Below are positions 25,166 through 25,807 of a stretch of 64,000 nucleotides of DNA, piece after piece; positions within the stretch are counted from its first letter, which is position 1; every line of letters begins with the position of its first letter. Under the pieces are notes generated by a model that did not search any database, was not told the origin of the DNA, and worked only from the letters and a program-made list of their open reading frames with translations. Position numbers and translations under genes: made by a program. Where the stretch lies: assembly GCF_001677475.2 (NCBI RefSeq), contig NZ_CP015229.1; one strand, given 5' to 3'. This stretch comes from Escherichia coli (lineage in GTDB: Bacteria > Pseudomonadota > Gammaproteobacteria > Enterobacterales > Enterobacteriaceae).

Positions 25166-25527
25166 ATGAGAAAAAAGCTGGCTTTTCTTGATACCAGTCT
25201 TGACGATTTACGCGCATTTCCAGAATCGTCTCGACAGGAAATTGGCTATCAACTCGCCAGGAAATTGGCTATCAACTCGACAGGATCCAACAAGGGTTAA
25301 ACCCATACGACTGGAAACCTTTTACAACTATCGGCCCGGGTGTGCGAGAGATTCGTACTCGCGATGCTGATGGGATCTATCGCGTCATGTATGTCGCAAA
25401 ATTTGAAGAAGCGGTTTACGTATTGCATTGTTTTCAAAAGAAAACACAGACTACCAGTCAATCGGATATTGATTTAGCCAAACGACGCTATAAAGAACTT
25501 GTTCAGGAGCGGAAAAATGAAAATTGA
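25166..25527 (+). pseudogene. HigB-like (Gp49/COG4679-type, RelE/ParE superfamily) toxin gene, frameshifted by a 23-bp tandem duplication
   Basis: RBS aaggatggag then ATG 25166; reads MRKKLAFLDTSLDDLRAFPESSRQEIGYQL then hits a stop at about 25300; the C-terminal part continues in another frame (ORF 25342..25527: ...REIRTRDADGIYRVMYVAKFEEAVYVLHCFQKKTQTTSQ...). Deleting one repeat copy restores a single ~112-aa ORF with the HxFxKKTQ motif. Confidence 0.7.
25234..25279 (+). repeat. 23-bp tandem duplication inside the toxin gene
   Basis: acaggaaattggctatcaactcg followed by ccaggaaattggctatcaactcg, then acagga again; 23 bp is not a multiple of 3. Confidence 0.9.
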
Positions 25528-25807
25528 AACCTTTGATAGTGTGTGGGATGCGGTGAGTGTCACCCCTGAACAAGCGGAAAATATGCGGATCCGTGCCGAG
25601 CTTGTAACGATCATTAATAACTGGATTGAACAACAAGGGTTTAGCCAGACTCAGGCAGCGTCTGCTTTAGGGGTCACTCAACCTCGCATATCTGAACTTG
25701 CCAGAGGTAAGATCCAGATCTTTAGTATCGATAAATTGATCACCATGATGGCTCATGCAGGATTGCATATTCAACGTATTGAAGTTCAATATCCACATGC
25801 TGCTTAG
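25517..25807 (+). CDS. HTH XRE-family antitoxin (HigA-like), apparently intact
   Basis: MKIETFDSVWDAVSVTPEQAENMRIRAELVTIINNWIEQQGFSQTQAASALGVTQPRISELARGKIQIFSIDKLITMMAHAGLHIQRIEVQYPHAA; start ATG overlaps the 3' end of the toxin frame by 11 bp. Confidence 0.75.
   Translation: MKIETFDSVWDAVSVTPEQAENMRIRAELVTIINNWIEQQGFSQTQAASALGVTQPRISELARGKIQIFSIDKLITMMAHAGLHIQRIEVQYPHAA

Follow-up and report, generated by a model that had tools for sequence, protein, structure and literature searches.

We conclude that the spacer between yegH and asmA in the window (the whole stretch of DNA that was analysed, 64,000 nt) carries an accessory chromosomal type II toxin-antitoxin (TA) operon of the Gp49/HTH_37 type, the cassette also found in E. 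coli O157:H7 Sakai, in which the toxin was lost to a young, revertible duplication and the antitoxin is intact. We put the probability of this reading at about 0.88. An earlier note on this DNA had described the cassette, and the coordinates and features it gave all proved correct. The spacer, which it had estimated at roughly 770 bp, measures 768 bp (25092-25859), with yegH on the plus strand ending at 25091 and asmA on the minus strand ending at 25860. It contains a gene pair with the toxin gene first, and the two genes overlap by 11 bp (25517-25527), in the order and to the extent that the note had given. The features of the locus are the following.

25098-25130, no strand assigned: palindrome with 16-nt arms, terminator-like, directly 3' of the yegH stop codon (inverted-repeat search)
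25131-25151, plus strand: putative promoter/operator (read directly from the sequence)
25166-25300, plus strand: toxin 5' fragment, a 44-aa ORF with its ATG at 25166 and the ribosome-binding site (RBS) GGAG 5 nt upstream
25235-25257, plus strand: extra 23-nt tandem unit (repeat analysis), within a tract spanning 25230-25285
25258-25527, plus strand: toxin remainder in the shifted frame, Gln24 to Asn112 and the stop codon (25525-25527)
25517-25807, plus strand: intact antitoxin gene, 96 aa, with its ATG at 25517, overlapping the toxin 3' end by 11 bp
25816-25851, no strand assigned: inverted repeat flanked by the stop codons of the antitoxin gene and of asmA (inverted-repeat search)

The palindrome behind yegH is part of the cassette-specific DNA; it is absent from K-12, in which homology stops at 25092. 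In the putative promoter, a perfect -10 hexamer TATAAT (25146-25151) is overlapped by the palindrome TTATAC-N8-GTATAA (25131-25150), which is a candidate operator for the helix-turn-helix (HTH) antitoxin. A consensus scan of the promoter region found no convincing -35 element and no plus-strand sigma-70 site. At the far end of the cassette, the inverted repeat at 25816-25851 probably serves as the shared terminator of the convergent genes. An Rfam search of the spacer returned nothing meaningful, the top match being STnc40 with an E value of 0.99.

The toxin gene is split by one extra copy of a repeat. Tandem Repeats Finder reported a single array in the region, with a period of 23 and 2.4 copies (25230-25285), and the tract reads directly as CTCG-A-[CAGGAAATTGGCTATCAACTCG]-C-[22-mer repeated]-A-CAGGA. 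Because 23 is not a multiple of three (+23 equals +2 modulo 3), the toxin frame is shifted at codon 31 of 112, and the 44-aa ORF consists of native residues 1-30 followed by 14 out-of-frame residues and the stop at 25300. The window allele therefore holds no uninterrupted frame for the whole Gp49 domain. The frame of the toxin remainder offers no start codon before a GTG at 25342 and no RBS; it still encodes the conserved HCFQKKTQ motif and is free of secondary disabling lesions. Removal of one repeat unit restores a 112-aa toxin with a single difference (T46S) from ECs_2869 of Sakai. When the 44-aa product is placed on the AlphaFold2 model of this repaired toxin, it retains only the first strand, the first helix and the greater part of the second, and the entire beta-sheet and the HCFQKKTQ motif lie downstream of it. 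Since the stub lacks both of these, we conclude that the toxin of the window allele is non-functional. Rescue by recoding, through a -1 slip at the A-AAA-AAG heptamer (25170-25176), was considered and rejected: two stop codons follow before 25200, and such a slip would also cost the toxin its N-terminal conserved residues.

How might the duplication have arisen? The intact gene holds two CTCG(A/C)CAGGA decamers 23 bp apart, an arrangement that would favour slipped-strand duplication; the 23-bp tandem duplication has shifted the toxin frame at codon 31 and left only the 44-aa stub. Intact alleles exist in two synonymous forms that differ at 25234, where the Arg23 codon is either CGA (junction bases A,A) or CGC (C,A) (L095 and L097-L101). 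The junction bases A,C,A of the duplicated allele cannot be derived from A,A or from C,A by one simple duplication. One further step is needed, be it a point change or unequal exchange of the CGA with the CGC form, and this need supports a single origin of the duplication. The closest view of the event comes from two contigs. L102 (ERR14024112) has an intact toxin, L008 (SRR25183521) has the duplication, and the two agree at 3,237 of 3,237 other aligned bases; if slippage within the perfect 22-mer removed one unit, exactly the A,A sequence of L102 would result. We assume that the Logan assembler uses a 31-base word. As the 22-nt repeat is shorter than that, L102 cannot be a collapsed assembly, and it is either a revertant or a surviving ancestor without the duplication. 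The lesion is single, recent and precisely reversible by the loss of one unit.

Alternatively, the 23-nt repeat could be a reversible on/off switch of the toxin, comparable to a contingency locus, in which case populations would carry both states. The contig pair is what such a switch would produce, the intact allele being regenerated to the base, and a toxin remainder without further damage would suit it as well. Nonetheless, only one or two copies of the unit have been seen, L102 is the single intact contig on that haplotype and it may be merely the surviving ancestral one. Additionally, a look-up of the minor-register revertant, which would encode a D31A toxin, found none on record, copy-number variation occurs in none of the ~790 intact alleles from complete genomes, and there is no sign of a high switching rate or of a benefit. 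We therefore regard the switch as improbable, and a shade more improbable still is the broader proposal that this is a chromosomal TA module held in a heritable, reversible 'off' state by unit gain and not decaying. The switch as an adaptive mechanism, for which one contig pair is the evidence, is unlikely. We favour the reading in which a toxin frameshift beside an intact antitoxin is an ordinary early step of gene decay.

The identity of the broken gene was examined on the toxin with one repeat unit removed. The repaired toxin matches the Pfam family Gp49 (PF05973) with an E value of 6.5e-31 over model positions 1-90 of 90, in agreement with the Gp49-type toxin named by the earlier note. Aligned with 19 homologues from other Proteobacteria (20 sequences in total), it shows 32 invariant residues, among them the strictly conserved block H80-C-F-Q-K-K-T-Q87 downstream of the frameshift. 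The AlphaFold2 model, built on the homologue alignment, has a mean pLDDT of 94, and its predicted architecture is a RelE-type fold, with N-terminal helices on an antiparallel beta-sheet. The best Foldseek matches in the PDB are to HigB1 of M. tuberculosis (Rv1955; 7NBU and 7AWK), with TM scores of 0.67-0.70 at an identity of 19-21%; S. pneumoniae HigB (6AF4), T. thermophilus RelE, V. cholerae HigB2 (5JA8, 8A0X), ParE2 and YafQ were matched as well. HigB1 has been solved on the ribosome with its mRNA target, and this supports by analogy a mechanism as a ribosome-dependent mRNase. The mycobacterial HigB1 operon presumably has a different, three-component organisation. For the intact 112-aa toxin we predict a RelE fold and a ribosome-dependent endonuclease activity on mRNA. 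At the level of sequence profiles, S. pneumoniae HigB is the sole detectable match among solved structures (E 3e-4).

The antitoxin gene has a Shine-Dalgarno sequence of its own (AGGAG, 25505-25509), 7 nt upstream of the ATG. Its product matches HTH_37 (PF13744) with an E value of 3.6e-21 over residues 17-86, as well as general XRE families, which bears out the XRE-type HTH antitoxin of the earlier note; it also matches an uncharacterised HTH structure in the PDB (2A6C, E 3.6e-14). The locus thus has a toxin gene that lies upstream of, and overlaps, the gene of a DNA-binding antitoxin. The predicted functions of the 96-aa antitoxin are binding and neutralisation of the toxin and, via its HTH domain, repression of the operon. 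In the window allele 216 bases upstream of the antitoxin gene are left untranslated, which might lower its transcription. Having its own RBS, the antitoxin can be translated independently, and production of an orphan HTH protein probably continues.

The note's label of 'HigB/HigA-like' can be refined. The antitoxin scores 17.1 bits against the NCBIfam HigA model (TIGR02607), for which the curated cut-off is 47.7, and the toxin scores 27 bits against TIGR02683 (upstrm_HI1419, RelE/ParE toxin), for which it is 62.85. Since both cut-offs are missed, the pair is of the Gp49/HTH_37 (HigB2/HigA2-like) type and not a canonical HigB/HigA of the Rts1 type. HigB2/HigA2 of V. cholerae (5JA8, 8A0X) likewise has the toxin gene first, a toxin with a RelE-type fold and an XRE-type HTH antitoxin, and its complex with operator DNA has been solved (8A0X), with the HTH of HigA2 at the C-terminus. 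In structural alignment V. cholerae HigB2 and the window toxin, which unlike HigB2 is broken, share 14-18% identity; phmmer and profile searches gave no match between the two. We take V. cholerae HigB2 to be a member of the Gp49 family. HigBA-type arrangements in which a Gp49 toxin precedes an HTH_37 antitoxin have been described, and the same PF05973 and PF13744 pair, toxin first, occurs in modules of Tn3-family transposons such as Tn4662a and TnPosp1 (PMC7157771). Those modules are transposon passengers beside a resolvase, whereas no transposase or resolvase lies near the cassette in the window, which is stand-alone and chromosomal.

Could the pair instead be a phage-derived regulatory pair, a Gp49-like protein with an XRE repressor, that plays some other role, so that loss of the first gene would not be toxin decay? 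The Pfam family takes its name from a phage protein, no function is assigned to the toxin's top PHROG match (phrog_2523, E 1e-36), PADLOC gives no match for the toxin, and the toxin role in this E. coli subfamily is proposed by homology. However, the structures matched by the fold are all toxins of the RelE, HigB or ParE type, the second PHROG match is annotated as a toxin, and the gene order and overlap are typical of HigBA modules (PMC7157771). Moreover, independent events have hit the first gene and spared the second (the 042-type deletion, and W42C in NDM2 before the antitoxin was lost; both are described below), which is the asymmetry expected for a toxin and its antidote. A phage regulatory pair is accordingly very unlikely, and we retain the TA assignment. 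Searches of the literature, with locus tags and neighbouring genes among the queries, found no experimental work on the cassette, for which toxicity and neutralisation are assigned by homology.

A comparison of the yegH-asmA region across genomes, as the earlier note had suggested, places the cassette in 910 of 5,426 complete RefSeq E. coli genomes (17%), in one copy each and always between yegH and asmA; it is thus not core. In 792 of them it is full length and annotated as a RelE/ParE toxin and an HTH protein, and the copies listed span 744-745 bp, which corresponds to a single repeat unit. Sakai (ECs_2869/ECs_2870), E. coli W, O55:H7, S88 and APEC O1 all have the same cassette at the same site. 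Compared with the window, the Sakai-type pair differs at 1 of 112 residues in the (repaired) toxin and at 2 of 96 in the antitoxin, and the DNA is ~99% identical apart from the 23-bp unit; Sakai-type alleles have a single unit and an intact 112-aa toxin, whereas the window allele is frameshifted. The window itself was compared with the same set of genomes on three 12-kb samples (1-12000, 20000-32000 and 40000-52000), for which the best genome showed identities of 96.8%, 98.2% and 97.9%. Since no complete E. coli exceeds ~98% identity, the source of the window is a deep-branching Escherichia lineage outside that set, conceivably a cryptic Escherichia clade. The note had called the cassette probably strain-specific accessory DNA. 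Accessory it is, but strain-specific understates its spread, the same site being occupied in several phylogroups and in the deep lineage of the window. Among species-representative genomes, no Escherichia representative with the cassette was found; the nearest relative of the toxin there is from Pantoea agglomerans (71% identity), and 417 further candidate stretches encode toxin relatives, of which 80, mostly from Proteobacteria, were kept.

The duplication itself was found in none of the 5,426 complete E. coli genomes, a 106-nt probe spanning the repeat having no contiguous match. The exact 44-aa frameshift product is nevertheless called on at least 24 independent contigs, which stem from two NCBI assemblies (GCA_018683295.1 and GCA_033745465.1), from a number of Logan-assembled SRA runs and from an ENA metagenome. 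Relatives with an intact allele are GCA_013342305.1 and GCA_019083685.1. Since this exact product requires both the duplication and the internal C, its recurrence shows the duplication itself. Nine full-length loci were retrieved, which over 4.1 kb share 99.2-100% identity with the window; the duplication and the junction bases A,C,A are present in each of them and also in one more, shorter locus on a metagenome contig. In all carriers the 3' half of yegH and the cassette are nearly identical, with few isolated changes, and the differences between carrier contigs cluster in two blocks in the 3' part of asmA (25929-26097, 16 sites; 26139-26343, ~10 sites). The same block variants were also observed in more distant haplotypes. 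The two blocks look like a recombination mosaic when the contigs are aligned. Dating the duplication by flank divergence, which reaches 0.8%, was rejected, as the differences cluster in these blocks. The earlier note had raised the possibility of an assembly artefact, under which the toxin would be intact in the source genome, but even though tandem repeats are sometimes mis-assembled and no complete RefSeq E. coli genome has the duplication, it is scarcely conceivable that the same duplication, with the same internal A-to-C difference, would arise as an error in at least 24 contigs that differ in project, assembler and sample type and lie on distinguishable asmA mosaics. The duplicated allele is real and inherited, and common to one family of closely related haplotypes.

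Beyond the window lineage, the cassette has been damaged in other ways. About 118 genomes, of which E. coli 042 is the type, match the cassette only from 25358 onwards: the promoter and roughly the first 57 codons of the toxin gene are gone, the toxin is annotated as a pseudogene and the antitoxin ORF is intact. Only 104 bp of the cassette remain in WB61, among them roughly the final 50 bp of the antitoxin gene. In NDM2 (NZ_CP083887.1, L105:2335-2958) a 5-bp tandem duplication (ACTCA ACTCA) in the HTH puts the antitoxin out of frame, and the toxin ORF is open but bears W42C, a change at a residue that is invariant across the 20 homologues. The NDM2 record is labelled as a 43-kb plasmid; it carries asmA-dcd-udk and is hence a chromosomal fragment.

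A further idea, that the antitoxin is kept as an anti-addiction factor against a near-identical toxin borne on a plasmid, was considered and rejected after three E. coli 'plasmid' matches of at least 98% had been found. Two of the three were inspected and are mislabelled chromosomal fragments, with asmA, dcd and udk in both and yegH in one; the third (365 kb) was outside the inspected pair. True plasmid homologues of the toxin, from Erwinia and Pantoea, are at most 74% identical.

What does the intact antitoxin tell us? The earlier note had read the split toxin and the full-length antitoxin, both of which we recover, as the pattern expected when a toxin decays and its antitoxin persists. This pattern is better supported by the 042-type allele and by NDM2 than by the window allele, whose lesion is single, recent and reversible. 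Because the lesion is so recent, the intact antitoxin says nothing about selection in the window lineage. Between the window and Sakai, the antitoxin gene has two non-synonymous and five synonymous differences, and such differences between distant lineages are consistent with constraint. Among the carriers of the duplication, the derived changes in the antitoxin are A45T in the window group and Q39R in one contig (L012), both non-synonymous, so that we see no sign of purifying selection in the alignment of these carriers. Orphan antitoxins whose toxin was lost or disrupted are reported to be very common across E. coli sequence types (PMC10790755), and a truncated toxin with an intact antitoxin has been described in Tn5501.5 (PMC7157771). 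The lesion in the window is a single reversible duplication and not a deletion.

The sites from which the cassette is wholly or partly missing are not simply vacant. As the earlier note had stated, K-12 has no annotated gene at this position; its yegH-asmA gap is 273 bp long and without homology to the cassette. When the states of the site are aligned, 042, WB61 and K-12 share another sequence, which sets in right behind the stop codon of yegH. It is an intergenic repeat element of ~390 bp that carries no annotation; E. coli genomes have it at a median of 3 places each, in copies that are 83-100% identical (042, L002:2612-3002; K-12, L004:3487-3759; WB61, L003:2740-3050), and wherever the cassette is incomplete or missing, the yegH-asmA spacer holds this element. 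In 042 the element lies directly against the truncated toxin, in WB61 its junction with the antitoxin tail falls at a CATATTCA microhomology, and K-12 carries its right half together with a REP element. Since the element abuts remnants of the cassette in 042 and WB61, the 'empty' K-12 site probably goes back to a state with the cassette, which replacement and deletion would then have removed. Caution is therefore advised, as the 'empty' site of K-12 is not necessarily ancestral.

We consider the result to be of little wider importance: the TA family is already known, and hundreds of E. coli genomes already have the cassette annotated. Food for further use is rather the locus as a whole, which forms a natural series of TA decay at one chromosomal site. 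The series runs from the intact operon (~790 genomes), through the reversible frameshift of the window lineage and the 5'-deleted toxin of the 042 type (~118 genomes), to NDM2, in which the toxin was mutated and the antitoxin then frameshifted, to the near-total deletion of WB61 and finally to K-12, from which the cassette is absent and where the other element is found. Such a series could be used in teaching or as a population-genomic marker.

Two minor observations concern the surroundings of the site. Rfam gave nothing for the ~390-bp element beyond a weak, REP-like match to naRNA4. In the K-12 and 042 loci that were scanned, the JUMPstart RNA element (RF01707, 57 bits, above the gathering score) was found in the leader of the colanic-acid operon, upstream of wza (L004:1423-1461 and L002:548-586), as expected for the colanic-acid cluster.
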